Below, one piece after another: positions 2,177-57,223 of a DNA stretch of 64,000 nucleotides. The DNA lies in the NCBI RefSeq assembly GCF_003991155.1, contig NZ_CP031293.1; one strand, given 5' to 3'. Both the position numbers and the translations under genes were made by a program. Under the pieces are notes generated by a model, which saw only the letters and a program-made list of their open reading frames with translations, was not told the DNA's origin and did no database searches. Numbering within the stretch: the stretch's first letter is position 1; every line of letters starts with the position of its first letter. Origin of the DNA: Escherichia coli. GTDB lineage: Bacteria > Pseudomonadota > Gammaproteobacteria > Enterobacterales > Enterobacteriaceae.

Positions 2177-2179
2177 TTT

Positions 2180-16359: not shown

Positions 16360-18348
16360 ATGTCATTAAAAGGATTGCGTTTTACGCTGAAAGTGGACGG
16401 CCAAAATGCGGACACCTTCGCCGTGGTAAATTTCTGGCTGATGCAGAATTTCTCGTTTCCATTTGTTATGGATGTAGATGTCGCCAGCAAGGAGTTTGGT
16501 ATTCAAGCAAATAGCTTGCTGGAAAAAAAAGCCACGCTGATCATCTGGCAGGGCCCCAAGGCGCTGCGTTATGTATCGGGTGTAATTGCCAGTTTCGGAA
16601 TGAAAGAAAACAATAACTGGCAGATGCAGTACCGCCTTCGTATCCAGCCACCTCTGTGGCGTAGCGGCCTACGCCAGAATTTCCGTATTTTTCAACAGCA
16701 AGATATTGCAACTATTTCAGCCACCTTACTGGATGAGAATGGTGTAACAGACTGGGAGCCATCCTTAAACAGTGAGCACCCTACTCGCGAGTTCTGCGTA
16801 CAGTATGGCGAAACGGACCTGGCATTTCTGTCACGGCTATGGGCAGAAGAAGGCATTTATTTTTATGATAAGTTAGCCCCGAACGGCCCGGATCAGAAAC
16901 TGACATTATGTGATGATGCAGCAGGTTTGTCGCCAATAGGAACCATTACCTTCAACCCAAATACCCGAACTGAAGCCGACAAGGAGTGCATCAATGCGTT
17001 TCATTACGAAGCTAATGTTCGTCCTTCATCAATACTGAGCAAAGACTACACCTTTAAAACCCCCGGCTGGGAAGGCAAATATATCCGACAGGGCGAGAAT
17101 CTGAACAACCAGTTTGAACAGTATGAAATCTATGACTACCCAGGACGTTTCAAGGATGAACAGCACGGGCAGGATTTTACCCGTTATCAGATGGATGGGT
17201 TGCGTAATGATGCGGAATTAGGCAGCGGTAGCAGCAATTCGCCGAGGCTATGGCCAGGAACCCGTTTCAAACTGGAGAACCATCCACAGAAAACCCTGAA
17301 CCGGGAATGGCAAGTGATCGGTAGCACACTAACGGGCGAACAGCCGCAGGCATTACATGGTAGCCAGGGTTACGGAACCTCGATGCATAACCAGTTTACT
17401 GTTATCCCGGCAGACCGTACCTGGCGTCCACAGCCAATGATGAAGCCAAAGGTAGATGGTCCACAAAGTGCCATTGTCACCGGTCCGGCTGGCGAGGAAA
17501 TTTTCTGCGATGAACATGGCCGGGTACGGGTGAAGTTTCACTGGGACAGAACCAAAACCAAAGATGAGAATAACTCCTGTTGGGTACGAGTGTCACAAGC
17601 CTGGGCTGGAGCCGGATTCGGCAACCTTGCCATTCCGCGTATAGACCAGGAAGTGATTGTCGATTTTCTTAACGGCGATCCCGACCAGCCCATCATCATG
17701 GGACGTACTTATCACCAGGATAACCGCTCTCCCGGTGGTCTGCCTGGCACCAAAACGCAGATGACTATCCGTTCAAAAACCTACAAAGGTGAGGGTTTTA
17801 ACGAACTACGTTTTGAGGATGCGACCAGTAACGAACAGCTTTATATGCACGCCCAGAAGGACATGGTGACAGAGGTACTGCATGACCGGACGACAACAGT
17901 GGATCACGACCATACCGAAACAGTGAAGAATAACCAGACGGTCACAGTAGTTGTTGGTCAGACGGTCAATGTGGGCAGTAAAAAAGAAGGCGGACACGAC
18001 CAGAAAGTGACGGTTGCCCACGACCAGACAGTCACGGTTCAGAACAACCAGACGCTGAATGTCACAGAAAAGCGTGAAAAAAATGTGGGTGGAGACCAGA
18101 AGGTCACTATCACTGGCGGCGATGATGAAACTGTCATGAAGTCGCAAAAGGTAACAGTAAAAGAAAACTATACGCTTGATGTCACCAAAGAAACGAAGAT
18201 TATTTCCGGCGAGTCGATTGAGCTTATCTGTGGCTCCTGCTCCCTGAAAATGGAAAAAGGTGGCAAGGTAACAATCTCCGGCTCAGAGTTTGATTTTACT
18301 GCTGGTGGCCTTGTGCATATCAACGGTAAAGACGTATTTATCAACTGA
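16360..18348 (+). CDS. vgrG: VgrG (TssI) spike protein, no C-terminal extension
   Basis: 662 aa; gp27/gp5-like; C-terminal beta-helical repeats (VTVAHDQTVTVQNNQTLNVTEKREKNVGGDQKVTITGGDDETV). Confidence 0.9.
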   Translation: MSLKGLRFTLKVDGQNADTFAVVNFWLMQNFSFPFVMDVDVASKEFGIQANSLLEKKATLIIWQGPKALRYVSGVIASFGMKENNNWQMQYRLRIQPPLWRSGLRQNFRIFQQQDIATISATLLDENGVTDWEPSLNSEHPTREFCVQYGETDLAFLSRLWAEEGIYFYDKLAPNGPDQKLTLCDDAAGLSPIGTITFNPNTRTEADKECINAFHYEANVRPSSILSKDYTFKTPGWEGKYIRQGENLNNQFEQYEIYDYPGRFKDEQHGQDFTRYQMDGLRNDAELGSGSSNSPRLWPGTRFKLENHPQKTLNREWQVIGSTLTGEQPQALHGSQGYGTSMHNQFTVIPADRTWRPQPMMKPKVDGPQSAIVTGPAGEEIFCDEHGRVRVKFHWDRTKTKDENNSCWVRVSQAWAGAGFGNLAIPRIDQEVIVDFLNGDPDQPIIMGRTYHQDNRSPGGLPGTKTQMTIRSKTYKGEGFNELRFEDATSNEQLYMHAQKDMVTEVLHDRTTTVDHDHTETVKNNQTVTVVVGQTVNVGSKKEGGHDQKVTVAHDQTVTVQNNQTLNVTEKREKNVGGDQKVTITGGDDETVMKSQKVTVKENYTLDVTKETKIISGESIELICGSCSLKMEKGGKVTISGSEFDFTAGGLVHINGKDVFIN

Positions 18349-18358
18349 GGCGTGAAAA

Positions 18359-19540
18359 ATGGAATTTCGTAATCTTACGCCGTTTTCAGTAATGCAATAT
18401 GCAATGGACGACAAACACAACGAGCGTCATTGTGTGGTCGCCATGAAAACCGGCTTCCGGCTGAAGCAGGACGAGAATGGTCAGTGGCAGGCACAACTGA
18501 TGGAAAACCCGCCATTGCCGCTCTGTGTGGAGGATGAGTATGCCGGGGAGATGAACACCTCTCCGGTACTGCGTGAAAGTGACCTTGCTCCTCTGAAACC
18601 CGCCTGTGACATCATCATCAACGGAACAGCTTATACGCCGGGAGGCGCTGCCGTGCCAGAAATGACGGCAGGCGTTCTTATGCTCTCATCGACAGGTGAG
18701 GTGCTGACAGACAAAAAACTGCGGATAACAGGCCAGCGTTTCTACAGGTACCAGCCGTTAATCCGCCAGTGGTATGAAACTGAACCGGAACCCTTCACCT
18801 CCCTGCCGCTTGACTACCGTTACGCTTTCGGCGGCGAATGCCGCGTGGAGGCAGGCAGCGAATATGCCAGCCGCGTCCCCGAAGAATATCGCCTGACCGA
18901 AGACCAGCGTCGGGAACACCCAAACCAGGAGAATCCACCACTGGCGCATATGGCCTGTCCGGTCAATCCACTCGGATTAGGCTATATGCAGCAGTGGTAT
19001 CTGCGGGCCTGTCAGGTTCAGCAGGTTGAAGCGCCCCGCATCATCGCCGTGGACAGCCCATTCACACTCAAACAGTTCACAGACTGTCTCGAAGGGAAAG
19101 CAGACTGGTTTGCCCCCGAATTTCAGCCAGCCGGTTTTGGCTGTATCGGGCGCGCCTGGCTGCCACGGTTATCTCTTGCTGGCACCTATGACCAGGAGTG
19201 GCTGGAAACACAACACCCCGACCTGCCGGATGATTTTGATTTTAACTACTGGAACTGCGCCCCGGATGACCAGCGCATCCCTTTTCCTCTGCCAGGACTG
19301 GGATTTGTACTGACGGGTTTTCGCCCGGAGGGCGATATCCGGTTCACCCTGCCCGCACATGAAGGACGCCTTCTGTTGCGCGCCATGAGCGGGCATCGAA
19401 TGCCATTACCCATGTTGCTGGATACGGTGGAAATCAATACTGACACCCTGACCGTGGCGCTGACCTGGCGCTTTCTGCTGCCCAACAGCACACCACCGGT
19501 GCGGGTACTGGAAGCCCGCTACAGAACAAGGAGCGCCTAA
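18359..19540 (+). CDS. DUF2169-family adaptor protein
   Basis: 393 aa between vgrG and PAAR-Rhs, the typical position for this adaptor family. Confidence 0.65.
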   Translation: MEFRNLTPFSVMQYAMDDKHNERHCVVAMKTGFRLKQDENGQWQAQLMENPPLPLCVEDEYAGEMNTSPVLRESDLAPLKPACDIIINGTAYTPGGAAVPEMTAGVLMLSSTGEVLTDKKLRITGQRFYRYQPLIRQWYETEPEPFTSLPLDYRYAFGGECRVEAGSEYASRVPEEYRLTEDQRREHPNQENPPLAHMACPVNPLGLGYMQQWYLRACQVQQVEAPRIIAVDSPFTLKQFTDCLEGKADWFAPEFQPAGFGCIGRAWLPRLSLAGTYDQEWLETQHPDLPDDFDFNYWNCAPDDQRIPFPLPGLGFVLTGFRPEGDIRFTLPAHEGRLLLRAMSGHRMPLPMLLDTVEINTDTLTVALTWRFLLPNSTPPVRVLEARYRTRSA

Positions 19541-19542
19541 GG

Positions 19543-22500
19543 ATGGCCGACAACTTTACAGCCCGTAAGCACGGACAATGGAAAGTCATCAGCACCAAAC
19601 CGGATGTCTGTAAAACACCACGCGGAGATTCCACACCGCCTGTCCCCTACCCTGTCACAGCCAATATGGCTGAAGCAGTGATGGTGGTGCAGTCGGTGAA
19701 GCTGAACGGCTGCCCGGCAGTGGTCCTAAACCAGAGCACCATCCCTCAGACAAAGGGCGATGCCGCAGGTGCGGCAAAAGGTGTCAGCAGCGGTACAGTG
19801 GGTGATGTCTGCGAGCCGCTGGACCACAGCGAGACAGTATTTTTTGGCGGCAAGCCGATACTGCGTCACCACGATGAGTTCTGGATGAACAGCCGTAACA
19901 CCATCGGCCTAATCGTGGGCCAGCCGCCACCGGCAGGCGTGCCTGCGGAAGAAGCGGACCCGCCGGATGAACCGGAGACGGAAGAAGAGGAAGAAAAGAG
20001 CAGCTGGCTGGACTGGGTGCAGACAGGACTGGATATTGCCGGGTTTGCACCGGGCTTTGGTTTTTTTGCCGATATGCTGAATGCGGGTATCAGCCTGGCG
20101 CGTGGTAATTATGCTGACGCGTTTATGTCTGTGGCGGCCTCACTTCCGGGGATAGGTGATGCGGCAGCGGCTGGCAGGATGGCAGTTAAAGGACGAAAAG
20201 CAGCAAAGGCGGCTAAAGAAGCCGCCGAACGAGCCGCAAAGAAAAAGCTGGAGAAGGAGGCGGCAATGCGCTCCCGTGCGCTGAGAAAAGCCCAGAAGAA
20301 AGCGGCAGCTAAAAAGAAAGGGGGTATCGTTAAGGGGAAAGCGAAAAATAACAAAGGCAAAGGTAAGGGTGCGGAAAGCAGTGATTGTACCAAACCCGGC
20401 GAACCCGTGGACGCCGGAACCGGCGACTTTCTCCAGCACTTCAGCGTTCTTTCCCTTCCCGGCTCACTTCCTCTCACGCTTTCCCGGTTTTACCGTTCTC
20501 AGGCACAACATGGCGGCATCTTTGGTCCCAAATGGACCGATGAATGGTCCGTATCCCTGAAGGTACACACTGACGGCAACCTGCACTTCACTGACGGTGA
20601 AGGGGTGGAACTGTACTACCCCATTCCGCAGGACGGCATTTTTGAGGGTGCAGCGAACTCCCGCCAGGCACACTACCGGCTGACGGGCGACATGAGCGGA
20701 GAACTGTCGTTGTCCGACCGCCGCACACAGCAGACACAGATTTTTTCTCAGGCAGGCACAGGTACTTATTTGCTGTCTGCCCTTCATGACAATTACGGCA
20801 ACCGGATTGATTTTATCCGCACGGACGGCCTGCTGACAGAAATCCGCCACAGCGACGGCTACACGCTCGCGCTTGCCTGGCTACAGCAGCAACTAATGAG
20901 CATTGACCTGGCAACACCGCGGCGTCAGCGCCTTGTCACCTGTCAGTACGATGATAATGGTTATCTGGCAGAGTGCGATACTTTCCAGTTTTCTCATCTG
21001 TGGCATGAATACACGACTGAAGGGTTTATGACCCGCTGGCGGGATACGGATAAAACCTGCGTGGATATCCGTTACGACCCGCAGGGGCGCGCCATCAGCA
21101 CCCTGTCAACCGAAGGCTATTACGACGACCGTTTTATCTATAACGATGAAGAGCACTGTACCACCTACGTGGATGCAGAAGGCGGCGAAACCCGTTACTG
21201 GTATAACGAAGACGGCCTGGTCACCCACAGCACCGACCCGCTGGGCCGTGAAGAGATTACAGTATGGGAAAACACGCAACTTCAGTCGCGCACCGACGCG
21301 CTGGGGCGTAAAACAGCGTATGAATATAACGATGAGGGCGATATCTGGCATGTTGCCCTGCCGGGCGGCTACAGCCTCTATTACGACTACAACGACGCCG
21401 GGCAGTTAACCCGCCTGACCCTGCCGGGCGACCAGGTATGGCTGTGGGACTACGACGATAAGGGCAGCATGGTCTGCCTGACCGACCCGCAGGGCCGGAA
21501 ACAGCAGTTCAGCTACAGCCAACAGGGTGATTTACTGGCGCGGATTATGCCGGGCGGAGCCACCTGGCGCTGGAGCCATGACGCCCTGCACCAGGTGCGC
21601 GAGACCACTGCGCCGGACGGCGGCGTCACGCAGACTGAACAGGATATGCTGGGCCGCCTGCTGAGTGTGAAAGACCCGCTGGGCTTCACCACGCAGTTCC
21701 GCCACAGCAAAACCCACGCTGGGCCGCTGGGCAGCGTGGAAGAAATTAACCGCCCGGATGGCGTGCGGGAACTGATGCGCCAGAACAGTGAAAAGCTGCC
21801 GGAGAGCTTCACCGATGGCGAAGGCAAAACCACCCGCTACGAATATGGTGCATTTGACCTGTTAACGGCAGTTATCCGCCCGGATGGTGAACGGCTGGAG
21901 TGCCGCTACGACAAGCTGACCCGCCTGACCGAAATCACCAACGCGGAAGGTGAGCACTACCGTCTGGAATATGATAAAGCCGGGCAGCTTATCGCGGAAA
22001 CCGACTTCACCGGGCGCACACTGACCTACAGCTACGATGCGGCAGGCCGCTGTACCCGCACCACCTTCCCGGACGGCACTCACCTGAACCGCCGCTACAA
22101 CGTGACCGACCAGGTAACGGACGAGGAAGTCACCCAGGGCGACAGCAACCGTACCCTGAGCGCCACCACCTTCCTCTATGACACGCTGTGCCGCCTGGTG
22201 GAGGCGAAAAACGATGATGCCATCGTTACGTATGAATATGACAGTGCCAGCAGGGTTGTGGCCGAGACAATCAACGGCAGGCGTACAGAATACAGTTACG
22301 ACAATAATCTCGACACAGTTTCACAGCGCACCACCGCAGGCATCACAGAGCACTTCACCCGCAACCTGATGGGCTATCTGACCACCTGGCAGATAGCCGA
22401 CCATGCCCCGCTGACATTTGAACATGACCTGCGCGGCATGGAAACGTCCCGACGCAGCGAGGCCGGGTTTTACCAGACGCTGGCTTACACCCGCACAGGA

Positions 22501-23961
22501 ATGCCAACGAAGCAGAATGCCGGGGACCACCGGGCCGGCTCGGATGAGCGGAATAAAAGCCTGAAGCGCCAGTGGCTGTATGACAAAGCGTATAATCTGA
22601 CCGCAATCGCCGACTCGCTGCGCGGCTCCATGTTCAACACCATCACGGCGAACGACCAGATAAGCCACGCCACCTGGACGGGTGATTCCAGTCAGTTTCC
22701 GCTGTGTGAGGAACTGTTCACTTACGACAAAAACCTGAACATCACCCGCCGCCAGACCCGGGTGAATGACATACTGGAAAGCGAAACGCACCAGCAGAAC
22801 CGGCATGGACGGGTGATATCAAGTGAGCATGAAGGCTGGCGGCACTCAACGCACCGCATCAATCCGCAGACAGGAAAACCGGAAGAAGGGAAATTTGTCC
22901 GGGTGGTGAACGCCCATAACGTCACCTGGAAATACGATGTTAACGGCAGGCTGATACAGAAGCTGGTCGATAAAGGCGGTTACCGACCGCTGGAATGGCG
23001 CTACAGATGGGACGCGCGCAGCCAGCTAACCGGGCTGGAAACCCCGGATGGTGAACGCTGGGAATACAAATACGACCCCTTCGGCAGGCGCATCAGCAAG
23101 CGCTGCACCAACCGCGACAAACCCGGTATGGATTTTCACTGGAATGGCGACCAGTTGACGGAGGAAATTCCGGTCGGCGCTGACAGTAGTCCTGATACTG
23201 AAAACAGCATCCGCTGGATATATGAGCCGGGAAGTTTTACACCGATTGCGCGTTATGAGAAGGGGCAACTGCATTATGCAGTGACGAACACGGTTGGCCG
23301 CGTACAGGAACTGCTGACAGAAAACGGCCTGATAGTCTGGAAAGGCAAGCAGCAGCTATGGGGCCGTGAGGAAGGCAGAAATAAGAAAGATGCGCCCACA
23401 TGCCGGTTACGTTTTCCGGGGCAGTACGAGGATGTGGAATCAGGGTTGTACTATAACCGGTTCCGGTACTATGATTGCGAGACAGGACAATATCTGTGTG
23501 CTGATCCGTCAGGATTGGACGGAGGGATTAATCCATATGGGTATGTGCATAATCCATTAGGGTGGGCAGACCCTTTTGGGCTAGCCAAAAAGAACGCTCA
23601 GAATACAGTTTTCAGATATCTGAGTGCAGACGATCGTATTCGATATGAGAATGGTCAAAGTTTATTACCTAAAGGTGAGTTTGGTTCAATAGTTGAACAT
23701 GTTGATGGAAAAAATACAGGACATATTTCTGCATCGCTTACCAAGTGTGCAGCTAAAATATTTGATTCGGGCAATGGGTATATAGAAATTGATGTTCAAA
23801 AAATTATCGACAGTGGTATATCATTTATTGATCACAAGAATGTTATGCAAGCGGTTCGTCGTAGCGGCTCTTTAACTAACAGGAGAGATGCCGAAAGAGC
23901 ACTAGAAGTTCTCTTCAAAGGTGAAATTCCCTTTGATGCAATTATTCGTCATGTTATATAA
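19543..23961 (+). CDS. rhs: PAAR-like/Rhs repeat effector with variable C-terminal toxin domain
   Basis: 1472 aa; N-terminal PAAR-like region, Lys/Ala-rich linker, YD repeats, core ending in DPSGLDGGINPYGYVHNPLGWADPFGL, then ~125 aa unique C-terminus. Confidence 0.9.
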   Translation: MADNFTARKHGQWKVISTKPDVCKTPRGDSTPPVPYPVTANMAEAVMVVQSVKLNGCPAVVLNQSTIPQTKGDAAGAAKGVSSGTVGDVCEPLDHSETVFFGGKPILRHHDEFWMNSRNTIGLIVGQPPPAGVPAEEADPPDEPETEEEEEKSSWLDWVQTGLDIAGFAPGFGFFADMLNAGISLARGNYADAFMSVAASLPGIGDAAAAGRMAVKGRKAAKAAKEAAERAAKKKLEKEAAMRSRALRKAQKKAAAKKKGGIVKGKAKNNKGKGKGAESSDCTKPGEPVDAGTGDFLQHFSVLSLPGSLPLTLSRFYRSQAQHGGIFGPKWTDEWSVSLKVHTDGNLHFTDGEGVELYYPIPQDGIFEGAANSRQAHYRLTGDMSGELSLSDRRTQQTQIFSQAGTGTYLLSALHDNYGNRIDFIRTDGLLTEIRHSDGYTLALAWLQQQLMSIDLATPRRQRLVTCQYDDNGYLAECDTFQFSHLWHEYTTEGFMTRWRDTDKTCVDIRYDPQGRAISTLSTEGYYDDRFIYNDEEHCTTYVDAEGGETRYWYNEDGLVTHSTDPLGREEITVWENTQLQSRTDALGRKTAYEYNDEGDIWHVALPGGYSLYYDYNDAGQLTRLTLPGDQVWLWDYDDKGSMVCLTDPQGRKQQFSYSQQGDLLARIMPGGATWRWSHDALHQVRETTAPDGGVTQTEQDMLGRLLSVKDPLGFTTQFRHSKTHAGPLGSVEEINRPDGVRELMRQNSEKLPESFTDGEGKTTRYEYGAFDLLTAVIRPDGERLECRYDKLTRLTEITNAEGEHYRLEYDKAGQLIAETDFTGRTLTYSYDAAGRCTRTTFPDGTHLNRRYNVTDQVTDEEVTQGDSNRTLSATTFLYDTLCRLVEAKNDDAIVTYEYDSASRVVAETINGRRTEYSYDNNLDTVSQRTTAGITEHFTRNLMGYLTTWQIADHAPLTFEHDLRGMETSRRSEAGFYQTLAYTRTGMPTKQNAGDHRAGSDERNKSLKRQWLYDKAYNLTAIADSLRGSMFNTITANDQISHATWTGDSSQFPLCEELFTYDKNLNITRRQTRVNDILESETHQQNRHGRVISSEHEGWRHSTHRINPQTGKPEEGKFVRVVNAHNVTWKYDVNGRLIQKLVDKGGYRPLEWRYRWDARSQLTGLETPDGERWEYKYDPFGRRISKRCTNRDKPGMDFHWNGDQLTEEIPVGADSSPDTENSIRWIYEPGSFTPIARYEKGQLHYAVTNTVGRVQELLTENGLIVWKGKQQLWGREEGRNKKDAPTCRLRFPGQYEDVESGLYYNRFRYYDCETGQYLCADPSGLDGGINPYGYVHNPLGWADPFGLAKKNAQNTVFRYLSADDRIRYENGQSLLPKGEFGSIVEHVDGKNTGHISASLTKCAAKIFDSGNGYIEIDVQKIIDSGISFIDHKNVMQAVRRSGSLTNRRDAERALEVLFKGEIPFDAIIRHVI

Positions 23962-23980
23962 AATAGGAAGGAGTGGAATA

Positions 23981-24274
23981 ATGCCTGCACTATCTGAGTA
24001 CTCGAATGTACACAACACTGTTTTTAATATTTTGATTTGTAAAGGATATCGATTGTGGCATGAAAAAAAACAAGAAAGATATTATGCCGAAAAAGATGGT
24101 TGGGATTTTGTAGCCAATAGCCCGTGTGCTCTCTTGGGGCTCATTGCTATTTATGAATATAAAAAACCCGATCATTATTATGAGTACTGGTGGAAAGATG
24201 AAGGATTACATTTAGAAAAAAACATTAGTGAAATCGCTCCTGAATATAACTCAATCATTTTAAAAAATAATTAG
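23981..24274 (+). CDS. Putative immunity protein for Rhs C-terminal toxin
   Basis: Start MPALSEYS at 23981 with AGGAAGGAG RBS, immediately after rhs stop; AT-rich small ORF. Confidence 0.5.
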   Translation: MPALSEYSNVHNTVFNILICKGYRLWHEKKQERYYAEKDGWDFVANSPCALLGLIAIYEYKKPDHYYEYWWKDEGLHLEKNISEIAPEYNSIILKNN

Positions 24275-24289
24275 TTGTATACTACTATG

Positions 24290-26030
24290 ATGATGACTCG
24301 GTAATAATAACAAACGAAACCCTCAACGGCAGACGGACGGAATATGGCCACGACGCAGAACAGGATTATGTCACCCGGCGCACCACCGCAGGCATTACGG
24401 AACGTTTCACCCGCGGGTTGATGGGTGAGCTGACATCGTGGCAGATAGCCGACCATGCGCCGCTGGCATTTGAATATGACCTGCGCGGCCAGGAAACATC
24501 CAGACAAAGCGAGGCCGGATTTTACCAGACGCAGGGCTACACGCAGACAGGAATGCTGACAACGCAGCGTTCGGGAAGCCAGGCAGAGCCGGAGGCGAAG
24601 AATAAAGACCTGCAACGCCAGTGGCTGTACGACCATGCGTATAACCTGACGATGATATCGGACACGCTGCGCGGGACGATGGTCAACAGCGTGACAGCGA
24701 ACGACCAGATAAGCCATGCCACCTGGACGGGCAGCAGTAATATGCCGATGAGTGAGGAACGCTTCCTCTACGACAAAAACCTGAATATCACCGCCGCCAG
24801 ACCTGGGTGAACGAGGTACTGGAGAGCGAGACACATCAGCAGCAACAGCATGGCCGGGTGGCGTCGCGTGGACACAAAGAATGGCGACACTCAACGCACC
24901 GGATTAACCCGGACACTGGCAAGCCGGAGGAAGGGAAATTTGTCCGGGTGGTCAACGCGCACGGTATCACCTGGAAGTACGATATTAACGGTCGTCTGGT
25001 GGAGAAGCTGGTCGATAAAGGTGGCTATCGCCCTCTCCAGTGGCGTTACAAATGGGATTCACGCAGCCAGTTGACCGGGCTGGAAACACCGGATGGTGAA
25101 CGCTGGGAGTATAAATACGACCCGTTCGGCAGGCGCATCAGCAAACGCTGTACCAGCCACGATAAACCCGGTATGGATTTTCACTGGAACGGCGACCAGT
25201 TGACGGAGGAAATTCCGGTTGGTGTGGATGGCAAACCGGAAGACGAAAACGCCATCCGCTGGATATACGAGCCGGGAGATTTCACGCCGTTTGCGCGTTA
25301 TGAGAAGGGGCAACTGAATTATGCGGTGACGGACACGGTTGGACGAGTACAGGAACTGCTGACCGAAGACGGCCTGATTGTCTGGAAAGGCAAGCAGCAG
25401 CTATGGGGACGTGAGGAAGGCATCAATAAGGGCGATGCACCCACCTGTCGGTTACGTTTTCCGGGGCAGTATGAGGACACAGAATCGGGACTGTACTATA
25501 ACCGGTTCCGGTACTATGATTGCGGGACGGGGCAGTATATCTCTTCAGATCCGATTGGGCTGAGAGGGGGAATAAAACCATATGGCTATGTTCATAGTCC
25601 ATTAAATTATATTGACCCATTAGGTTTAGCTAACGCTAAAGTTATAGATAATGTTTTGCATATTGTGGATAAATTTGGAGTAAATGGGGCTGCTCCTGAT
25701 ACTGCAGCATCCAGAGAATTGGCTGAGTTTGTAAAAAGATGGAACGAGCAGATAGTGGCGAATGGTGGTTCAATGGCCAGACGTTCTGTTTGTAAAGAAG
25801 TCAGAAAAGCAGCAAGTGAAGCCGCCGCTGCTGAGAGAAAACTTAACCCAAGTTTATATGCTAATGGTGAAGTGGCGGGGCATATTCCAGATGTTGGATG
25901 GGGTGGAAAAATTGATGGTCCGTTTATGCCGTTAAGTCCAAAAGTAAATTCTTATATTGGTGGGTTAACTCAAGCAGTGCCTGTTGGTACAACTTATACA
26001 TCGGTAAGAATAGTGGACATTATACTATGA
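24290..26030 (+). CDS. Orphan rhs C-terminal cassette 1 (core fragment + distinct toxin tip), frameshifted near 24793
   Basis: Nucleotide and protein similarity to 22270..23580 of the main rhs; 1-bp deletion (atcaccgccgccagac vs atcacccgccgccagac) breaks the frame; ORF 24807..26030 carries DPLGL followed by a different C-terminus. Confidence 0.75.
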
Positions 26031-26554
26031 AAAAATTAAAAGAATTGATTAACGATATTTTGGTTGATTTAAAAATAAATATAACGGAATTACCTGTCAC
26101 TTTACACAGCCATGATAAAGTACCCACGCTAAAAAAAGATTACTATAGAAATCTTAGCCCTATGCTAAAGGTTAGATTTGGTATGTTCTCTAGTTGGAAG
26201 AATGCAACACATGGGGATTGGCTTTCAATAGAAGAGATGATGGAAATTTGGCGTGATGATTTGGTAATAAATGACCGATTGTGGCGAATTAAGGAGAATC
26301 AGATAGCTGCTCGTAATAATTGGGACAATGATGCTTCTTCGCTTTTCAAAAATAATAGATTATCACTTTTTGCTGGAAGTGAGTCTACCTATGAACGAAT
26401 ATATCTGCTTTGGTTAGATAGTGAAATTGAACCTGAGATATGGGTATATGACTGCAATGGTGAATCGAGATATAAAAATCTAGAGTCTTATTTAAATGCA
26501 TATATAAATGACGATGTTAGTGCTAGTAATGAGTCATGGAGAGCCAAATACTGA
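26027..26554 (+). CDS. Putative immunity protein for orphan toxin 1
   Basis: 175 aa, ATGA overlap with toxin stop, AT-rich. Confidence 0.5.
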   Translation: MKKLKELINDILVDLKINITELPVTLHSHDKVPTLKKDYYRNLSPMLKVRFGMFSSWKNATHGDWLSIEEMMEIWRDDLVINDRLWRIKENQIAARNNWDNDASSLFKNNRLSLFAGSESTYERIYLLWLDSEIEPEIWVYDCNGESRYKNLESYLNAYINDDVSASNESWRAKY

Positions 26555-26704: not shown

Positions 26705-28310
26705 CTAGTAGGGCTGTCTGACCACCTGGCAGATAGCGGACCATGCCCCGCTGACATTTGAGCATGACCTGCGCGGCATGGAAACCTCCCGACGCAGCGG
26801 GGCCGGATTTTACCAGACGCTGGCTTACACGCGCACAGGGATGCCAGCGAAGCAGAATGCCGGGGACCACCAGGCCGGGCCGCATGAGCGAAATAAAAGC
26901 CTGGAGCGGGAATGGCTTTACGACAAAGCGTATAACCTGACCGCAATCGCCGACTCGCTGCGCGGCTCCATGTTCAACACCATCACGGCAAACGACCAGA
27001 TAAGCCACGCCACCTGGACGGGTGATTCCAGCCAGTTTCCGCTGTGCGAGGAGCTGTTCACTTACGATAAAAACCTGAACATCACCCGCCGCCAGACCCG
27101 TGTGAATAACGTCCTGGAAAGCGAAACGCACCAGCAACAGCAGCATGGCCGGGTGATATCCAGTGAGCATGAAGGCTGGCGGCACTCAACGCACCGCATC
27201 AATCCGCAGACAGGAAAACCGGAAGAAGGGAAATTTGTCCGGGTGGTGAATGCCCATAACATCACCTGGAAATACGATGTTAACGGCAGGCTGGTACAGA
27301 AGCTGGTCGATAAAGGTGGCTACCGCCCTCTCGAATGGCGCTACAGATGGGATGCAAGAAGCCAGCTAACCGGACTGGAAACCCCGGATGGCGAACGCTG
27401 GGAATATAAATACGACCCGTTTGGCAGGCGCATCAGCAAACGCTGCACCAACCGCGACAAACCCGGCATGGATTTTCACTGGAACGGCGACCAGCTAACG
27501 GAGGAAATTCCGGTTGGCGTTAACGGTAAACCGGAAGACGAAAACGCCATCCGCTGGATATACGAGCCGGGAGATTTCACGCCGTTTGCGCGTTATGAGA
27601 AGGGGCAACTGAATTATGCGGTGACGGACACGGTTGGACGAGTACAGGAACTGCTGACCGAAGACGGCCTGATTGTCTGGAAAGGCAAGCAGCAGCTATG
27701 GGGACGTGAGGAAGGCATCAATAAGGGCGATGCACCCACCTGTCGGTTACGTTTTCCGGGGCAGTATGAGGACACAGAATCGGGACTGTACTATAACCGG
27801 TTCCGGTACTATGATTGCGAGACGGGGCAGTATATCTCTTCAGATCCCATAGGATTACTTGGGGGGATAAATCCTTATGGATATGTTCGTAACTCGCTGG
27901 AATTGATTGACCCTTGGGGGCTAGACAGTAAACGCGCTCGACTCCTCAAACAAAAAGGATTCCAAGAACATCATATTATCAGCGATAAAAACAGCTTAAC
28001 CAAAAACCATCCATTGTTGAAGGCCGCGGCATACGACCTACAGAAAATGAAAAACAAGATTTTCTTACCTACAAAATGTGAACTTCATGCAACTCGATCC
28101 ATTCATAAAGGGAGGCATCAAAAAAAGGTAAGTGAAAACCTGGCAAATGAAATGGACAAAGTGTTAGAACACGGGAGAAAACATGGGTGGACGCAAAAAC
28201 AATACAGTGACGCACTTGACGAAATAGTTGCTAAAGAAAGAGCCCTCTTGAAATCTGGCCATAGAGCTTTAAATAAAAACAGACGTGCATGGTCTGTTTT
28301 ACTAACTTAA
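26705..28310 (+). CDS. Orphan rhs C-terminal cassette 2 with HNH/AHH-like nuclease tip
   Basis: Similarity to main rhs from ~22380 onward; core ends DPWGL; C-terminus has EHHIIS ... H ... H pattern resembling the AHH-type HNH nuclease toxin domain. Confidence 0.7.
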
Positions 28311-28322
28311 CAGAGAAAATAT

Positions 28323-28880
28323 ATGTATAGATGGACAATCCCAGAACAATATGCCAATAAGTATATTGGAGAATATCAATATGAATCTTTTGATTACTTA
28401 CTTTTTTCTCATAGCACACCAATTGAAAGAGTTGAGAATATCAATCCAGTCATTATCTACGCGATGCCCGATGAAATGATAAATAAATATGATTGCTTGC
28501 CAAATAGTTCATTGATCCCCGTAGTTAATGAACGACTAAAGGACTTCCTGGAAACACATGCCAAAGGTAATGTTGAGTTTCATAAAATAGACCTTCACAC
28601 GAACAATGGACTCAAAGATGGTTTTTATCTTTTGAATACACTCACAAAACTACCGTTAATTGATATGCAGCACTCTCATTGCCAGTATATTCCCGGAACA
28701 ACAGCGATCATGGGGTTTGAACAGGTTTTTTTTATTGAAGAGCCTCCGGAAGATTTTTGCATTGCACGATGCGCAGAATATTCATCTTATCTTATGTTAT
28801 CTGATTCATTAGTAAAAAAAATGAAAAAAGAAAAATTTAAAGGAATTTCATATTCGAAAGTTCCTGTTCACCGAGGTTAA
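28323..28880 (+). CDS. Putative immunity protein for orphan toxin 2
   Basis: 185 aa ORF 13 nt after the toxin stop; AT-rich. Confidence 0.5.
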   Translation: MYRWTIPEQYANKYIGEYQYESFDYLLFSHSTPIERVENINPVIIYAMPDEMINKYDCLPNSSLIPVVNERLKDFLETHAKGNVEFHKIDLHTNNGLKDGFYLLNTLTKLPLIDMQHSHCQYIPGTTAIMGFEQVFFIEEPPEDFCIARCAEYSSYLMLSDSLVKKMKKEKFKGISYSKVPVHRG

Positions 28881-29384: not shown

Positions 29385-30658
29385 TGCTTTTTTGTACTAA
29401 ATAATTCGCATTTTATGTTTAAAAATTGAGATATTCCTCATTACCTAAAGCTTTTTTTTATTGCTTATACATGATCAAATACTCCTTACATAATTAAGGA
29501 GAACAAAATGGAACTTAAAAAATTGATGGAACATATTTCTATTATCCCCGATTACAGACAAGCCTGGAAAGTGGAACATAAATTATCGGATATTCTACTG
29601 TTGACTATTTGTGCCGTTATTTCGGGTGCAGAAGGCTGGGAAGATATAGAGGATTTTGGGGAAACACATCTCGATTTTTTGAAGCAATATGGTGATTTTG
29701 ATAATGGTATTCCTGTTCACGATACCATTGCCAGAGTTGTATCCTGTATCAGTCCTGCAAAATTTCACGAGTGCTTTATTAACTGGATGCGTGACTGCCA
29801 TTCTTCAGATGATAAAGACGTCATTGCAATTGATGGAAAAACACTCCGGCATTCTTATGACAAGAGTCGCCGCAAGGGTGCGATTCATGTCATTAGTGCG
29901 TTCTCAACAATGCACAGTCTGGTCATCGGACAGATCAGGACGGATGAGAAATCCAATGAAATTACAGCTATCCCTGAACTTCTTAACATGCTGGATATTA
30001 AAGGAAAAATCATCACAACTGATGCGATGGGTTGCCAGAAAGATATTGCAGAGAAGATACAAAAACAGGGCGGTGATTATTTATTCGCTGTAAAAGGAAA
30101 TCAGGGGCTGCTTAATAAAGCCTTTGAGGAAAAATTTCCACTGAAAGAATTAAATAATCCAGAGCATGACAGTTACGCCATTAGTGAAAAGAGTCACGGC
30201 AGAGAAGAAATCCGTCTTCATATTGTTTGCGATGTCCCTGATGAACTTATTGATTTCACGTTTGAATGGAAAGGACTGAAGAAATTATGCGTGGCAGTCT
30301 CCTTTCGGTCAATAATAGCAGAACAAAAGAAAGAGCCAGAAATGACGGTCAGATATTATATCAGTTCTGCTGATTTAACCGCAGAGAAGTTCGCCACAGC
30401 AATCCGAAACCACTGGCACGTGGAGAATAAGCTGCACTGGCGTCTGGACGTGGTAATGAATGAAGACGACTGCAAAATAAGAAGAGGAAACGCAGCAGAA
30501 TTATTTTCAGGGATACGGCACATTGCTATTAATATTTTGACGAATGATAAGGTATTCAAGGCAGGGTTAAGACGTAAGATGCGAAAAGCAGCCATGGACA
30601 GAAACTATCTCGCGTCAGTCCTTGCGGGGAGCGGGCTTTCGTAATCTTGCCCTGGGGT
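29385..30658 (+). mobile_element. ISAs1-family (H-repeat) insertion sequence, copy 1
   Basis: Near-identical ~120 bp leader and 3' end shared with copy 2; contains intact transposase ORF; boundaries approximate. Confidence 0.7.
29508..30644 (+). CDS. ISAs1-family transposase (H-repeat-associated protein)
   Basis: 378 aa, recognisable H-rpt/ISAs1 transposase sequence ([18 protein letters not shown]...). Confidence 0.85.
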
Positions 30659-30813
30659 TTTGGGCTAACGAAATGGAAAATTTAACATAAATTTAATTCA
30701 TGCTCTTGCCCTGATTTCGGGCTGACATAATAGTGAAGATTTTAACACAAATTTAATTCATGTCCTCATCCCAGTATAGACTTTAATTTTATTTTTTTGA
30801 TAAGGTACTACAT

Positions 30814-31647
30814 ATGGCTTTCGTTTCTGCGTTAGTTAATTTGCGTTATGATTTAAACAAATATATTGTAGAGTTACGACGCATTTCAAATCTTGCCGCG
30901 ACATTTCTTATGGAAGATGATTTTATTAAGAATTTCTATCTTAATGAAGTTGAAATAAGCATAAATAATTATAATTTTAGATTCAATAACGAGCGAAACC
31001 CATTCAAGCAAAGGGAAATAGTTTTTGAACTTAAAGAAGAAGTTGAGTTGGAAAAAAAAGAATATGATATATTAAGAATGAAAGATCATGTTACTTATAT
31101 GGTAACTGATATGTTTGAAGAACAAGGCGTGTTAAAATATGTAAAAATATTTGGAGGGGTTGCTACAGGAGGAATAGAACTTTTCACTGCCTATGGGTAT
31201 TATCAATTGGGTAAAACATTACACCTTAGAAGATTACGTGGGATAGCAATTGTTTTTGCTTCTTATGGCGTTGATAATATATGGGAGTCAGTCTCTCCTT
31301 TGATTTTTGAAGAAGCGAATGCAGGGCCTCTTAGACGTGTTATTCGGGGAATTGCTGGTGAGTTTGGAATAAGTGAAGATGATTCTGATTTAGGGTATAG
31401 TTTTGTTGAATTTTCATTGTCCTTATATAATACTTTTAATGCAAGAAAATTGTTTCCGAATGAAAATAGGTTAGTTATAGGTGTGGGAAGAAAAAGGCCA
31501 GGGACTGGTAGGCTTTTTAATAATGTAAGCTGGGATTATGCATCTAAATGGTCAAAAATGAATACAAATATGAAGATTTGGAATTTAGGGTATAGCGCTT
31601 ATAAAGCCAAACTGGAATTTTATGATGAGAAATATAAATTTAAATAA
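30814..31647 (+). CDS. Hypothetical protein, AT-rich, between the two ISAs1 copies
   Basis: 277 aa ORF with two hydrophobic segments (YVKIFGGVATGGIELFTAYGYY; GIAIVFASYGV); no family recognised. Confidence 0.4.
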   Translation: MAFVSALVNLRYDLNKYIVELRRISNLAATFLMEDDFIKNFYLNEVEISINNYNFRFNNERNPFKQREIVFELKEEVELEKKEYDILRMKDHVTYMVTDMFEEQGVLKYVKIFGGVATGGIELFTAYGYYQLGKTLHLRRLRGIAIVFASYGVDNIWESVSPLIFEEANAGPLRRVIRGIAGEFGISEDDSDLGYSFVEFSLSLYNTFNARKLFPNENRLVIGVGRKRPGTGRLFNNVSWDYASKWSKMNTNMKIWNLGYSAYKAKLEFYDEKYKFK

Positions 31648-31723
31648 TATTTCACATTACGTACTTTTAAAAAAGTATAATTATTAGCCGGTTAATTCAA
31701 TTATATAACACAGCCTCATTGCG

Positions 31724-31966
31724 CTAAAATAAAATTCGTATACCAAGTTTTATCAGCTTTAACTGAGTGATGATCTTTACATTATTGTTTTTTGCATCTG
31801 AGCATAAAATCATGACACTAAATATTGAAAACACAGCAGACATAAAGAAAAAAGCGGCCCCTCTTTCCAAGAGGATTCCGAGAATGAAAGCAAAAAATGC
31901 CACTGCCGGAAACCATAGCGACAAAGCGTCTTTTGCAGAGTCATATATCACATCTATTAGTGTCAA
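31724..31966 (-). CDS. Hypothetical small membrane protein
   Basis: 80 aa ORF with two predicted transmembrane helices; coding status uncertain. Confidence 0.25.
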   Translation of the reverse strand: MTLIDVIYDSAKDALSLWFPAVAFFAFILGILLERGAAFFFMSAVFSIFSVMILCSDAKNNNVKIITQLKLIKLGIRILF

Positions 31967-32169
31967 ATCTTTAGTTAAATTTGGATGAAGAGTTTTTTAA
32001 TATTTTTAAAATTATGCCTAAGACTGAATAACTCGTTATATTTAAAACCGTTAGTAATAATTTTACGCCTTACTTTTTCCAGTTTCATTTATTATCACTC
32101 CTTGAGATCTTTAAATTATTATAGTGTATTTTTTAAGTGAGTCAATGCATCAGAGAAAGATCATCAGAA

Positions 32170-33445
32170 GAACTCTTTTTGTACTAAATAATTCGCATTT
32201 TATGTTTAAAAATTGAGATATTCCTCATTGTCTGAAGCTGTTTTTTATTGCTTATACATGATCAAATACTCCTTACATAATTAAGGAGAACAAAATGGAA
32301 CTTAAAAAATTGATGGAACATATTTCTATTATTCCCGATTACAGACAAGTCTGGAAAGTGGAACATAAATTGTCTGATATTCTACTGCTGACTATTTGTG
32401 CCGTTATTTCGGGTGCAGAAGGTTGGGAAGATATAGAGGATTTTGGGGAAACACATCTCGATTTTTTAAAACAATACGGTGATTTTGAAAATGGTATTCC
32501 TGTTCACGATACCATTGCCAGAGTTGTATCCTGTATCAGTCCTGCAAAATTTCACGAGTGCTTTATTAACTGGATGCGTGACTGCCATTCTTCAGATGAT
32601 AAAGACGTCATCGTAATTGATGGAAAAACACTCTGGCATTATTATGACAAGAGTCGCCGCAAGGGAGCGATTCATGTCATTAGTGCGTTCTCAACAATGC
32701 ACAGTCTGGTCATCGGACAGATCAAGACGGATGAGAAATCCAATGAGATTACAGCTATCCCAGAACTTCTTAACATGCTGGATATTAAAGGAAAAATCAT
32801 CACAACTGATGCGATGGGTTGCCAGAAAGATATTGCAGAGAAGATACAAAACAGGGAGGTGATTATTTATTCGCTGTAAAAGGAAACCAGGGGCGGCTAA
32901 ATAAAGCCTTCGAGGAAAAATTTCCGCTGAAAGAATTAAATAATCCAGAGCATGACAGTTACGCAATGAGTGAAAAGAGTCACGGCAGAGAAGAAATCCG
33001 TCTTCACATTGTTTGCGATGTCCCTGATGAACTTATTGATTTCACGTTTGAATGGAAAGGTCTGAAGAAATTATGCGTGGCAGTCTCCTTTCGGTCAATA
33101 ATAGCAGAACAAAAGAAAGAGCCAGAAATGACGGTCAGATATTATATCAGTTCTGCTGATTTAACCGCAGAGAAGTTCGCCACAGCAATCCGAAACCACT
33201 GGCACGTGGAGAATAAGCTGCACTGGCGTCTGGACGTGGTAATGAATGAAGACGACTGCAAAATAAGAAGAGGAAACGCCGCAGAATTATTTTCAGGGAT
33301 ACGGCACATCGCTATTAATATTTTAACGAATGATAAGGTATTCAAGGCAGGGTTAAGACGTAAGATGCGAAAAGCTGCCATGGACAGAAACTATCTCGCG
33401 TCAGTCCTTGCGGGGAGCGGGCTTTCGTAATCTTTCCCTGGAGTG
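32170..33445 (+). mobile_element. ISAs1-family insertion sequence, copy 2 (transposase frameshifted)
   Basis: Same leader and ends as copy 1; direct orientation; boundaries approximate. Confidence 0.7.
32295..33430 (+). pseudogene. ISAs1-family transposase, frameshifted
   Basis: Split into ORFs 32295..32879 and 32819..33430; 1-bp deletion in an A-run near 32850 relative to copy 1 (acaaaaacagggcgg vs acaaaacagggagg). Confidence 0.8.
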
Positions 33446-38008: not shown

Positions 38009-38084
38009 TCCTCTGTAGTTCAGTCGGTAGAACGGCGGACTGTTAATCCGTATGTCACTGGTTCGAGTCCAGTCAGAGGAGCCA
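38009..38084 (+). tRNA. asnV: tRNA-Asn (anticodon GTT)
   Basis: 76 nt TCCTCTGTAGTTCAGTCGGTAGAACGGCGGACTGTTAATCCGTATGTCACTGGTTCGAGTCCAGTCAGAGGAGCCA; cloverleaf consistent, anticodon GTT at 38042..38044; gene symbol inferred from position next to nac. Confidence 0.9.
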
Positions 38085-38250
38085 AATTTTAGTCTTGAGA
38101 CATCTCTATAAGTCTCAGGATAGTTAAAAAACAAGAACTTATCTTTACCCGGTTGTCTCGCAAGAGGCTGCTGGGTTTCTTGACATCCATAGTTTTTAGG
38201 GGCCTAATCAGGGGCCTCACGGTTCGGTGAGCAAACGGAGCCCCCACGCT

Positions 38251-39513
38251 ATGGCATTAACAGACACCGCTATTCGCAAGACTAAACCCTCTGACAAACC
38301 CTTCAAAATGACGGACAGTTCTGGACTGTACCTGTTGATCAAACCTAACGGCTCAAAACTCTGGTATATGAAGTACCGCATCGACGGCAAAGAGAAGAAA
38401 CTGGCCTTTGGCCCCTACCCGGAGATCTCCCTGTTGCAGGCTCGCCGCCTGCGCGAAACAGCACGCAATAACATTCATGCAGGCGTCGATCCGGCTGCGG
38501 TGAAGCAAACCGAGAAACAGAAGAGGAAAAACGGGCAGACGTTCAGCCAGATCGCCATCAACTGGCATAGCGAGCATAAACGCTGGTCTGAGCATTACGC
38601 GAAAACGGTTATGCGCAGGCTGGAAATGTACGTTTTCCCGGATATCGGGGATCGCCTTATCGAGGAGATCGAAACGGAGGATTTGTTATTCACGTTGCGC
38701 AAGGTAGAGAGTAAAGGCTTTCTGGAAATCACCGCGCGGCTGAAAAACTACGTCACCGATATCATGCACTACGCGATGAAAAAGAAACTGCTCAAAGCGA
38801 ACCCGGCGCTGTATCTGGACGGTGAGTTTGCCGCGCCAGAAACCAGTCACTACCCGGCCCTGTCGCTGGACAAATTGCCTGAGCTTTTAACCCGGACGGA
38901 TAGCTACTGCGGCAGGCTGCTGACAAAATACGCGCTTAAGCTGTCGCTGATTTTTTTTGTGCGCTCCAGCGAACTACGCTTTGCGCGCTGGAGTGAGATC
39001 GACTGGCAGCAGAAGTTATGGATAATCCCGGAAGAGCGCGAACAGATCGAAAACGTGCGCTTCTCTTACCGGGGGTCGAAAATGAAAATCCAGCACATTG
39101 TGCCGCTGTCGGATCAGGCGATTGCGATACTGAAACAGATCGAGGCCCTCTCCGGGCATCTGGCCTTTATTTTTCCCGGCGAATACGACCAGGACAAGTG
39201 CATGAGCGACAACACCGTCAACAAGGCGCTGCGCGTGATGGGTTACGACACCAAAAAGGATATCTGCGGGCATGGCTTCCGGGCAATGGCCTGTAGTGCG
39301 CTGAGCGAATCGGGATTATGGAGCAAAGAAGCCATTGAAAAGCAGATGAGCCACCAGGAAAGAAACAGCGTCCGTGCTGCCTATATTCACAAGGCTGAAT
39401 ATCTGGAGGAACGGATCGAGATGATGCAGTGGTGGTCAGATTATCTTGATGCAAACAGTGACGGGTATGTCTCGGCTTACCAGTATGCCCGCCGCCTAAA
39501 ACAGGCGTCGTAA
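38251..39513 (+). CDS. int: P4-like tyrosine integrase
   Basis: ORF 38227..39513; probable start MALTDTAIRKTKP at 38251; phage-integrase family features; lies directly 3' of the tRNA. Confidence 0.85.
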   Translation: MALTDTAIRKTKPSDKPFKMTDSSGLYLLIKPNGSKLWYMKYRIDGKEKKLAFGPYPEISLLQARRLRETARNNIHAGVDPAAVKQTEKQKRKNGQTFSQIAINWHSEHKRWSEHYAKTVMRRLEMYVFPDIGDRLIEEIETEDLLFTLRKVESKGFLEITARLKNYVTDIMHYAMKKKLLKANPALYLDGEFAAPETSHYPALSLDKLPELLTRTDSYCGRLLTKYALKLSLIFFVRSSELRFARWSEIDWQQKLWIIPEEREQIENVRFSYRGSKMKIQHIVPLSDQAIAILKQIEALSGHLAFIFPGEYDQDKCMSDNTVNKALRVMGYDTKKDICGHGFRAMACSALSESGLWSKEAIEKQMSHQERNSVRAAYIHKAEYLEERIEMMQWWSDYLDANSDGYVSAYQYARRLKQAS

Positions 39514-39636
39514 GTTAACAAAGCATCAGAGGGGGAAAAGGTATATTCCCCCTTTGTGCGTTTCAAATGTCGATGCTGACTGTAGCTTTTAAACTAAATT
39601 ACTGGATAAAAAGTAGCTTTTAAGCTACTATCTTTT

Positions 39637-39954
39637 ATGAAAACGATAAAGACCTACATAACTGCCGACGGGCGAGATCTGTATGCAGAGTTTTTTAAAG
39701 GGTTACGCGACCCCATCGCGAAGGCAAAGATCGCTTCCCGGATCAACCGGATGGCTTCGGACAATTTTGGCGACCATAAGCCCTGCCGGGAAGGTGTCTG
39801 GGAACTCAGGATAGATCAAGGGGCTGGGTATCGGGTTTATTACAGCCTGGTGGATGGAGAAGTCGTCCTGTTGATTCTGGCTGGCGACAAGCGTACGCAG
39901 GATGCAGATATAGATGAGGCTATTCGCTGCCTCAAAGACTATTTGAAGAGGTGA
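39637..39954 (+). CDS. RelE/ParE-superfamily toxin, HigB-like
   Basis: 105 aa; 3 nt before the antitoxin-like gene; toxin-first order typical of HigBA. Confidence 0.6.
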   Translation: MKTIKTYITADGRDLYAEFFKGLRDPIAKAKIASRINRMASDNFGDHKPCREGVWELRIDQGAGYRVYYSLVDGEVVLLILAGDKRTQDADIDEAIRCLKDYLKR

Positions 39955-39957
39955 TGT

Positions 39958-40266
39958 ATGGCGAAAGAACGTTTATATGATGATGTCATGGTGGAAGCGC
40001 TCCGGGAAGATCCTGCTTTTGCTCAGGCCTATCTGCATCAGGCATTTCTGGATATGGATGAAGATGGCGGTCAGGAAGCTTTTTTACTCGCGTTACGCCA
40101 TGTTGTTGAAGCGCGGGGAGGAATGGCGACGGTTGCCCAGAAAGCCGGTGTATCGCGTGAATCACTGTACCGCACGCTCTCCCCGACCGGCAACCCGACA
40201 CTGAAAACACTCCGCAGCGTCGTCCACGCCGCAGGTTTTCAGTTCTCTGCGCTGGCAAGTGCCTGA
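39958..40266 (+). CDS. HigA-like antitoxin (HTH)
   Basis: 102 aa; sequence resembles addiction-module antidote proteins (GVSRESLYRTLSPTGNPTLKTL helix-turn-helix region). Confidence 0.6.
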   Translation: MAKERLYDDVMVEALREDPAFAQAYLHQAFLDMDEDGGQEAFLLALRHVVEARGGMATVAQKAGVSRESLYRTLSPTGNPTLKTLRSVVHAAGFQFSALASA

Positions 40267-40388
40267 GTAGTTTTACATTTTGCAGCGATAATATAAATTG
40301 TAAATCATAATCCCTCCGTTGCTCTGTTCTGAGCAACGGATTACTTTGCATATTATCTGCTTTGCTAATCCATCAATTTTTAATTACC

Positions 40389-40682
40389 TTACATGGAAGC
40401 AACATACTCCATTAAATTATCTAATAAAAAATCAACCTTACTTATACCTTCATTTACATTATCGGCATAGATAAGTTCTACGAGCTTCATCCAACTTAAA
40501 TTGGAACGTACATTGTATTGTAAAAGGAGCCACTCTCTAAATCCCTCTAACATTTTACCGTCAAAGGAAAAATCCATCCCTAGTATAAAAGCCACAGTGT
40601 TTTCATAGTTATTTTCAAGTAGATACATATCGATATGCTTCTTAAAAAAAACAATTTTTTTTAGGAGGATATTTTTATTCAT
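40389..40682 (-). CDS. Putative immunity protein for orphan rhs toxin
   Basis: 97 aa, start 3 nt after the toxin stop, AT-rich. Confidence 0.5.
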   Translation of the reverse strand: MNKNILLKKIVFFKKHIDMYLLENNYENTVAFILGMDFSFDGKMLEGFREWLLLQYNVRSNLSWMKLVELIYADNVNEGISKVDFLLDNLMEYVASM

Positions 40683-40684
40683 AA

Positions 40685-41400: not shown

Positions 41401-41442
41401 CTTGGTTAGATGACCGTCAGTTAAATGGATATTATCATTCCA

Positions 41443-41784: not shown

Positions 41785-41794
41785 ATCTTTTCCT

Positions 41795-49243: not shown

Positions 49244-57223
<7,980 letters not shown>

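Follow-up and report, generated by a model that had tools for sequence, protein, structure and literature searches.

The C-terminal tip of an Escherichia coli Rhs protein is probably an ADP-ribosyltransferase-fold toxin related to RhsF-CT, followed by its cognate immunity gene

What does the tip of the large Rhs protein encoded in this stretch of Escherichia coli DNA do, and what protects the producing cell from it? The window analysed here comprises 64,000 nucleotides of contig NZ_CP031293.1 (assembly GCF_003991155.1). The ORF list and translation give it an ATG-started open reading frame (ORF; 19543..23961, + strand) for a 1472-aa Rhs protein, which lies in a gene cluster of a type VI secretion system (T6SS). 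The protein ends in a domain of exactly 125 aa (23584..23958, + strand; aa 1348-1472, AKKNAQ...IRHVI), and a small ORF follows directly downstream. The sequence-only reading recognised no known toxin motif in this tip and left its activity unassigned. We conclude, with a probability of roughly 0.8, that the tip is a toxin of the ADP-ribosyltransferase (ART) fold homologous to RhsF-CT of Chromobacterium violaceum, and that the small ORF is its cognate immunity gene.

Searches with the single toxin sequence returned nothing from NCBIfam, PADLOC, PHROGs or the PDB (phmmer), and Pfam gave only DUF7587, at E = 0.06-0.1. A HMMER search of 1.84 billion 50%-identity representatives found 100 relatives of the domain at E <= 1e-3, and for 68 of these E was <= 1e-10. 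The domain was located at the extreme C-terminus in nearly all of these, and the host proteins ranged from ~100 to 2281 aa. Among the carriers were short orphan fragments and Rhs proteins, some of the latter with a HINT/intein-like pre-toxin module that ends in VHN. In the 56-sequence family alignment from which all conservation counts below are taken, three residues were invariant (56/56), namely R11, S49 and E108, which correspond to R1358, S1396 and E1455 of the E. coli protein. The key residues are encoded on the + strand at 23614-23616 (R1358), 23728-23736 (S1396-A-S1398), 23761-23763 (F1407) and 23905-23907 (E1455). The Arg was directly preceded by Tyr or Phe in 52 of the 56 sequences, the invariant Ser lay within an I-S-A-S stretch with S51 kept in 47, and position 60 (F1407 in E. 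coli) was Phe in 35, Tyr in 20 and Gly in one. The aromatic-Arg on strand 1 and the Ser-x-Ser/Thr on strand 2 that mark the R-S-E clade were both found (model strands 8-12 and 47-51); the [Q/E]-x-E of that clade was not, as Ala lay two residues ahead of E108 in 49 of the 56. Judged by these residues, the domain carries the Arg / Ser-x-Ser / Glu signature of R-S-E ADP-ribosyltransferases.

AlphaFold2, run with the family alignment, gave a confident ART-fold model, with a predicted local distance difference test score (pLDDT) of 94.3 and a predicted template modelling score (pTM) of 0.86. A Foldseek comparison of the model with the PDB matched pertussis toxin S1, cholera toxin A1, EcPltA, CARDS, Scabin/ScARP, DarT and TreTu with probabilities of ~1.0. 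The domain is thus confidently predicted to have the ADP-ribosyltransferase fold with its split beta-sheet core. DUF7587 (PF24494), the one weak Pfam match, was found in 20 of the 56 members at E <= 0.1 and in two at E <= 1e-3, and its matches covered the C-terminal half including the catalytic Glu. This uncharacterised Pfam family may be distantly related to ART-fold proteins; it is not mentioned in any paper, and no functional information was gained from it.

The family profile (A1) matched a single chain of the PDB in an hmmsearch, 9zdm_B (126 aa, E = 3.2e-12, profile positions 8-125), which is named there 'Probable Rhs-family protein'. The E. coli domain was 30% identical to this chain over 115 aa (BLASTP E = 7e-7), and hhalign gave a probability of 97.8%. 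The 9ZDM structure is the complex of RhsF-CT with RhsFi, encoded by CV_1431 and CV_1430 of C. violaceum (bioRxiv 10.64898/2025.12.06.692724; J Biol Chem 2026;302:113216, PMC13324451). Killing by RhsF is T6SS-dependent, the C-terminal domain is toxic in E. coli, and RhsFi neutralises it, with R102 and W103 occluding the pocket (10.64898/2025.12.06.692724; PMC13324451). Toxicity of RhsF-CT was lost in the R1403A, Y1456A and E1497A mutants and partly lost in S1445A, and its authors reported no BLAST relatives (10.64898/2025.12.06.692724; PMC13324451). R1403, S1445, Y1456 and E1497 of RhsF align with R1358, S1396, F1407 and E1455 of the E. coli protein. The sequence-only reading had regarded the toxin as new unless it proved to be confidently homologous to a characterised toxin family, and such homology, to RhsF-CT (9ZDM), is what the profile comparison found. 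Together with the predicted fold it makes an activity class assignable to the tip. That the relationship was missed at first is understandable because single-sequence searches fail here and only the family profile reached 9ZDM.

The two systems share their general plan, that is, a T6SS Rhs C-terminal toxin of ~120 aa with an ART fold and a small cytoplasmic immunity gene directly downstream. They differ in the carrier, which has a FIX domain in RhsF and a PAAR-like/PIPY N-terminus served by a DUF2169 chaperone in E. coli. The immunity proteins also differ: RhsFi has a six-helix fold, whereas the 97-aa E. coli protein is of alpha/beta type and has no sequence match to 9ZDM chain A.

On two metagenomic contigs, a gene for a NADAR protein (PF08719) was found downstream of the toxin-immunity pair. 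In L014, the toxin gene (888-3242) is followed by a 248-aa ORF (3255-4001) and by a NADAR gene (3989-4432, precomputed match) that overlaps the preceding ORF by 13 nt. In L021, the toxin gene (8-784), an immunity gene of the E. coli type (816-1178) and a NADAR gene (1224-1745, E = 1.3e-39) follow one another, and the toxin and immunity protein are 43% and 49% identical, respectively, to their E. coli counterparts. Both NADAR genes are on the same strand as the toxin-immunity pair, with minimal spacing. The two contigs are from unrelated organisms, with GC contents of 0.33 and 0.575; identity is 48% between their toxins and 49% between their NADARs. NADAR genes number a few per genome at most, so finding them at two of ~19 loci is far above chance (~1e-4 as a rough estimate from a small sample). 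NADARs are hydrolases of guanine-linked ADP-ribose, or cytidine-linked in some members; they reverse the products of ScARP, Scabin and DarT1 and act as antitoxins to such enzymes (PMC11543638, PMC11125620, PMC12945103). RhsF-CT, for its part, ADP-ribosylates a single-stranded RNA oligonucleotide in vitro in an NAD+-dependent manner that is blocked by RhsFi (journal version, PMC13324451). The NADAR linkage, this RNA activity and the basic charge of the toxin family favour a nucleic acid as the target, which we hold to be somewhat better than an even bet; that the modification is linked to the base is possible, with odds a little short of even.

Action on a protein target, the strongest alternative, is unlikely in our estimate. 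TreX/TriX, an Rhs toxin of Xenorhabdus bovienii (PDB 8S2M), modifies arginines of FtsZ, requires thioredoxin and has an R-S-ExE active site (PMC11606950), whereas the E. coli toxin lacks the ExE, is 12% identical to TreX and gave no profile match with it. RhsP2 of Pseudomonas aeruginosa (PDB 7RT7) is an Rhs-borne ART that modifies RNA, and the RhsF authors compare the atypical triad of RhsF to that of RhsP2 (PMC13324451). It is improbable that NAD+ glycohydrolase is the main activity of the domain and that cells die of NAD+ depletion and not of ADP-ribose transfer, the activity recorded for RhsF-CT on RNA. The nucleobase ARTs of the pierisin group (ScARP, Scabin, pierisin) and DarT1 have no detectable sequence homology to the E. 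coli toxin, which is much smaller and has Ala-x-Glu where QxE would be expected. The products of those enzymes are reversed by NADAR hydrolases, whereas the primary protection in E. coli would, by analogy, be a binding immunity protein, and there is no NADAR gene at the locus.

Several observations weigh against an ADP-ribosylating, nucleic acid-directed toxin related to RhsF-CT. For the E. coli protein itself, we infer toxicity and immunity as well as NAD+ use and target. By its sequence, the toxin departs from the textbook R-S-ExE and R-S-QxE enzymes, its Glu being without the usual Gln or Glu two residues upstream, and in place of the essential Y1456 of RhsF it has a Phe, which keeps the aromatic ring without the hydroxyl. 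A DHxNV segment is conserved in the E. coli subfamily (H84 in 48/56, N86 in 44/56) and falls in a gap of RhsF; with this segment missing from RhsF and an identity of only 30%, the targets of the two toxins could differ. The in vivo target of RhsF is still unknown (PMC13324451), and relatives of TreX are known to vary in target. NADAR genes, moreover, were present at only two of the ~19 distinct loci and absent from the E. coli locus and ~17 others.

The small AT-rich ORF downstream, whose strong ribosome-binding site and position had already suggested a toxin/immunity layout, was examined in its relatives, and that suggestion was supported. It starts with an ATG 20 bases past the Rhs stop codon and encodes an acidic protein of 97 aa with no signal peptide (23981..24274, + strand). 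A Shine-Dalgarno sequence, AGGAAGGAG (23965..23973, + strand), lies 7 nt ahead of the ATG. A longer reading from a GTG (23921, 117 aa) was unsupported, as the homologues are 95-105 aa long and begin with MPALSEY. The 97-aa protein had homologues in 56 clusters at 90% identity, all of 93-114 aa except one of 72 aa and all unnamed, from Enterobacteriaceae, Xenorhabdus, Caballeronia, Flavobacterium, Moraxella, Prosthecobacter, Minicystis and Polyangiaceae. Their alignment (A3) showed a strikingly conserved N-terminus, MPALSEYSNV, and a conserved Y69-W70-W71-[K/R]72 stretch in which W70 and W71 were present in 41/41 sequences. The predicted structure (pLDDT 91) has an alpha-beta-beta-beta-alpha order. 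The median isoelectric point was 9.2 for the toxins, which are basic, and 4.9 for the immunity homologues, which are acidic.

We scanned the neighbourhoods of close toxin relatives, with one genome per species and narrow alignments, which gave a small census of eight genome and six metagenome loci. A homologue of the 97-aa protein was encoded directly 3' of the toxin in 7/7 intact genome loci (phmmer 1e-33 to 1e-43), from Pectobacterium, Superficieibacter, Yersinia nurmii, Xenorhabdus, a Saccharospirillaceae bacterium, the actinomycete Spirilliplanes and the myxobacterium Minicystis. The same toxin-immunity order was found at a Caballeronia Rhs locus and, for members at 34-43% identity, at three metagenomic loci. 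Homologues also occurred without a toxin, either solitary or in arrays of small ORFs, as would orphan immunity genes, which they resemble. One of them, in a Prosthecobacter locus (L029, 2498-5182), lies between two ORFs of 498 and 288 aa that both match aldehyde dehydrogenase, as if it had been inserted between or into them. In a Nannocystis locus (L009, 4614-7216), the toxin domain is split into two pieces ~1.2 kb apart (profile positions 6-82 and 75-126), which points to an insertion within the toxin gene, and an intact immunity gene follows the second piece.

These findings support the view that the 97-aa ORF behaves as the cognate immunity gene, the product of which would neutralise the toxin. 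It is very improbable that it encodes an adaptor or chaperone or is a chance ORF. Its position directly 3' of the toxin is kept across carriers (Rhs, Rhs with HINT, short orphans) and phyla, the orphan copies and toxin-less arrays of small ORFs are typical of immunity genes, the acidic protein faces a basic toxin, and the role of a delivery chaperone is already taken by DUF2169. Another 97-aa ORF in the window (40389..40682), located behind a second Rhs fragment, was considered as a second copy of the immunity gene and rejected, its sequence being unrelated.

More divergent members of the toxin family precede small proteins other than the 97-aa family. In the '...LIKGGID' subgroup of toxins (L018, L023, L024, L025 and the P0085 contig), the next ORF downstream encodes ~172-183 aa, and those of L023-L025 share an LRP[F/Y] motif; these ORFs probably represent a second immunity family. 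After the divergent member P0087 comes an ORF of 120 aa, helical-looking and with an SLRPY motif, for which no relative was found in the PDB and which looks like another immunity family. The toxin family is therefore served by several, at least two or three, unrelated immunity families, which is common for polymorphic toxins.

The Rhs protein itself has the architecture of a polymorphic-toxin effector. YD repeats, the RHS core and the Rhs-associated core TIGR03696 were recognised in it by NCBIfam. The Rhs shell starts with DUF6531 (20398..20619, + strand; aa 286-359; Pfam PF20148, E = 1.3e-18), and the Rhs-associated core (23359..23583, + strand; aa 1273-1347) terminates in PLGWADPFGL. The DPFGL at its end (aa 1343-1347, nt 23569-23583) fits the PxxxxDPxGL boundary. 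From known Rhs biology, the autoproteolytic boundary is predicted to lie after L1347. The coordinates of the Rhs protein, the core boundary near 23575 and the C-terminus of ~125 aa given by the sequence-only reading all agree with the DPFGL position, the end of TIGR03696 at aa 1347 and the exact domain length of 125 aa. Its description as a PAAR-Rhs effector held for the Rhs T6SS effector, whereas the N-terminus is PAAR-like (PF13665, PIPY) and not a canonical PAAR. This PAAR-like (DUF4150/PIPY) domain (19585..19908, + strand; aa 15-122; Pfam Tox-PAAR-like PF13665, E = 4.4e-32) contains a PVPYP motif, as read from the translation.

The GC content is ~0.55 in the core, drops to ~0.36 at 23550 and is back at ~0.57 past 24300. 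Of 5426 complete E. coli genomes, 28 have the stretch 23560-24290 with 100% identity, and RefSeq names the products of the identical locus 'PAAR-like domain-containing protein' (Rhs) and 'hypothetical protein' (small ORF). A tblastn search of plasmids with the toxin domain gave no match. The tip is polymorphic, because a kindred Rhs core (81-82% identity) occurs without it in 16 additional E. coli genomes.

Upstream of the Rhs gene are the genes for the VgrG spike protein, which is the effector carrier (16360..18348, + strand; named 'type VI secretion system tip protein VgrG' by RefSeq in the identical locus), and for a DUF2169 accessory protein (18359..19540, + strand). The latter is so named by RefSeq, and no NCBIfam model matched it. 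DUF2169 proteins are chaperones required by PAAR-like 'PIPY' domains for capping VgrG, so this one would be the chaperone of the PAAR-like tip (PMC11883445). In the identical RefSeq E. coli locus (L001), tssH, icmH/dotU, tssK, tssJ, tagH, tssG, tssF, tssE, tssC and tssB share one strand, and the genes for Hcp, VgrG, DUF2169 and Rhs are on the opposite strand. The Rhs protein is a polymorphic-toxin effector within a T6SS cluster, and its motifs suggest that it is secreted and cleaves itself.

From these parts a mechanism can be proposed. The PAAR-like/PIPY domain would cap the VgrG spike with the aid of the DUF2169 chaperone encoded upstream, as its domain content and published work suggest (PMC11883445). 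The Rhs shell would enclose the toxin and, given its conserved motif, would cleave itself past DPFGL, between L1347 and A1348. Firing of the T6SS would place the toxin in the cytoplasm of a neighbouring cell, which is consistent with an immunity protein that has no signal peptide. There the toxin may bind NAD+ through R1358, S1396 and the aromatic F1407, residues indicated by their conservation and by their alignment with those mutated in RhsF, and E1455 would catalyse the transfer of ADP-ribose to a cytoplasmic target, most likely a nucleic acid. The acidic 97-aa immunity protein would bind the basic toxin and obstruct its active site; by analogy with R102/W103 of RhsFi, the Tyr-Trp-Trp-Lys/Arg stretch is a candidate, if speculative, plug. 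A more specific version, in which the toxin ADP-ribosylates a nucleobase (guanine or cytosine, in RNA or DNA) and is countered by a pocket-plugging alpha/beta immunity protein (Trp-Trp-Lys/Arg) together with a lineage-specific, co-transferred NADAR eraser, is tentative, and we give it lower odds than base linkage by itself. If true, this version would define the chemistry of the RhsF family and make the toxin class the first in Rhs/T6SS systems to have a NADAR as back-up immunity.

Two orphan rhs 3' fragments follow the immunity gene. The first (24300-26554) is homologous to the main Rhs core from ~aa 935 on, has a frameshift near 24807 and ends in an AT-rich C-terminal domain of its own with no Pfam match; the 175-aa ORF after it (26027-26554) is presumably its immunity gene. 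The second (26778-28880) has an AHH (HNH/EndoVII) nuclease as its C-terminal domain (PF14412, E = 6e-15) and is followed by an Imm11-family gene (28323-28880). Both fragments are GC-rich and then AT-rich, with a small ORF after each, which is the usual trace of toxin-tip displacement. These fragments, one of them frameshifted, and the insertion sequence (IS) elements at the locus could also mark the toxin-immunity module as a decayed, displaced tip without current function, which is hardly credible given that the tip forms one reading frame with a full-length Rhs encoded after VgrG and DUF2169, retains all invariant family residues and was found unchanged in 28 genomes of varied host origin.

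Other features of the window were also recorded. Between the T6SS/Rhs array and cbl-nac (29508-33430) are an ISAs1/ISEc1 transposase gene, a DUF4225 gene (30814-31647) and a frameshifted second ISAs1 copy. In the region 38009-45883, a tRNA-Asn gene is followed by genes for an integrase and a RelE/ParE pair, and by a second Rhs locus, which lies on the minus strand. This locus encodes a 1362-aa Rhs protein (41795-45883), the N-terminal 200 aa of which had no NCBIfam match, a 124-aa ORF (41443-41817), an orphan tip (40685-41299) and the unrelated 97-aa ORF at 40389-40682 described above. Its toxin tips had no Pfam match and are unrelated to the 125-aa tip at 23584..23958. Further downstream (49169-57223) is a gene for a 2684-aa inverse autotransporter adhesin of the intimin/invasin family, whose best NCBIfam model was the IatC N-terminal region.

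The preferred reading, in which an RhsF-CT homologue of the ART fold is the toxin and has a cognate immunity gene, gives a function to a tip that carries no annotation in RefSeq or Pfam in the 28 complete E. coli genomes that have it. It leaves the general picture of Rhs effectors unchanged and is useful more than surprising. A distinct, previously uncharacterised immunity family and the NADAR linkage of some toxin members are new. The sequence comparison suggests a working active site of Arg / Ser / aromatic / Glu and not the strict published R-Y-E triad. RhsF-CT is not isolated: it belongs to a broad family of ~100 clusters that spans several phyla and several delivery scaffolds, including an E. 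coli T6SS effector, and the NADAR linkage within this family provides a concrete, testable lead to its target chemistry.

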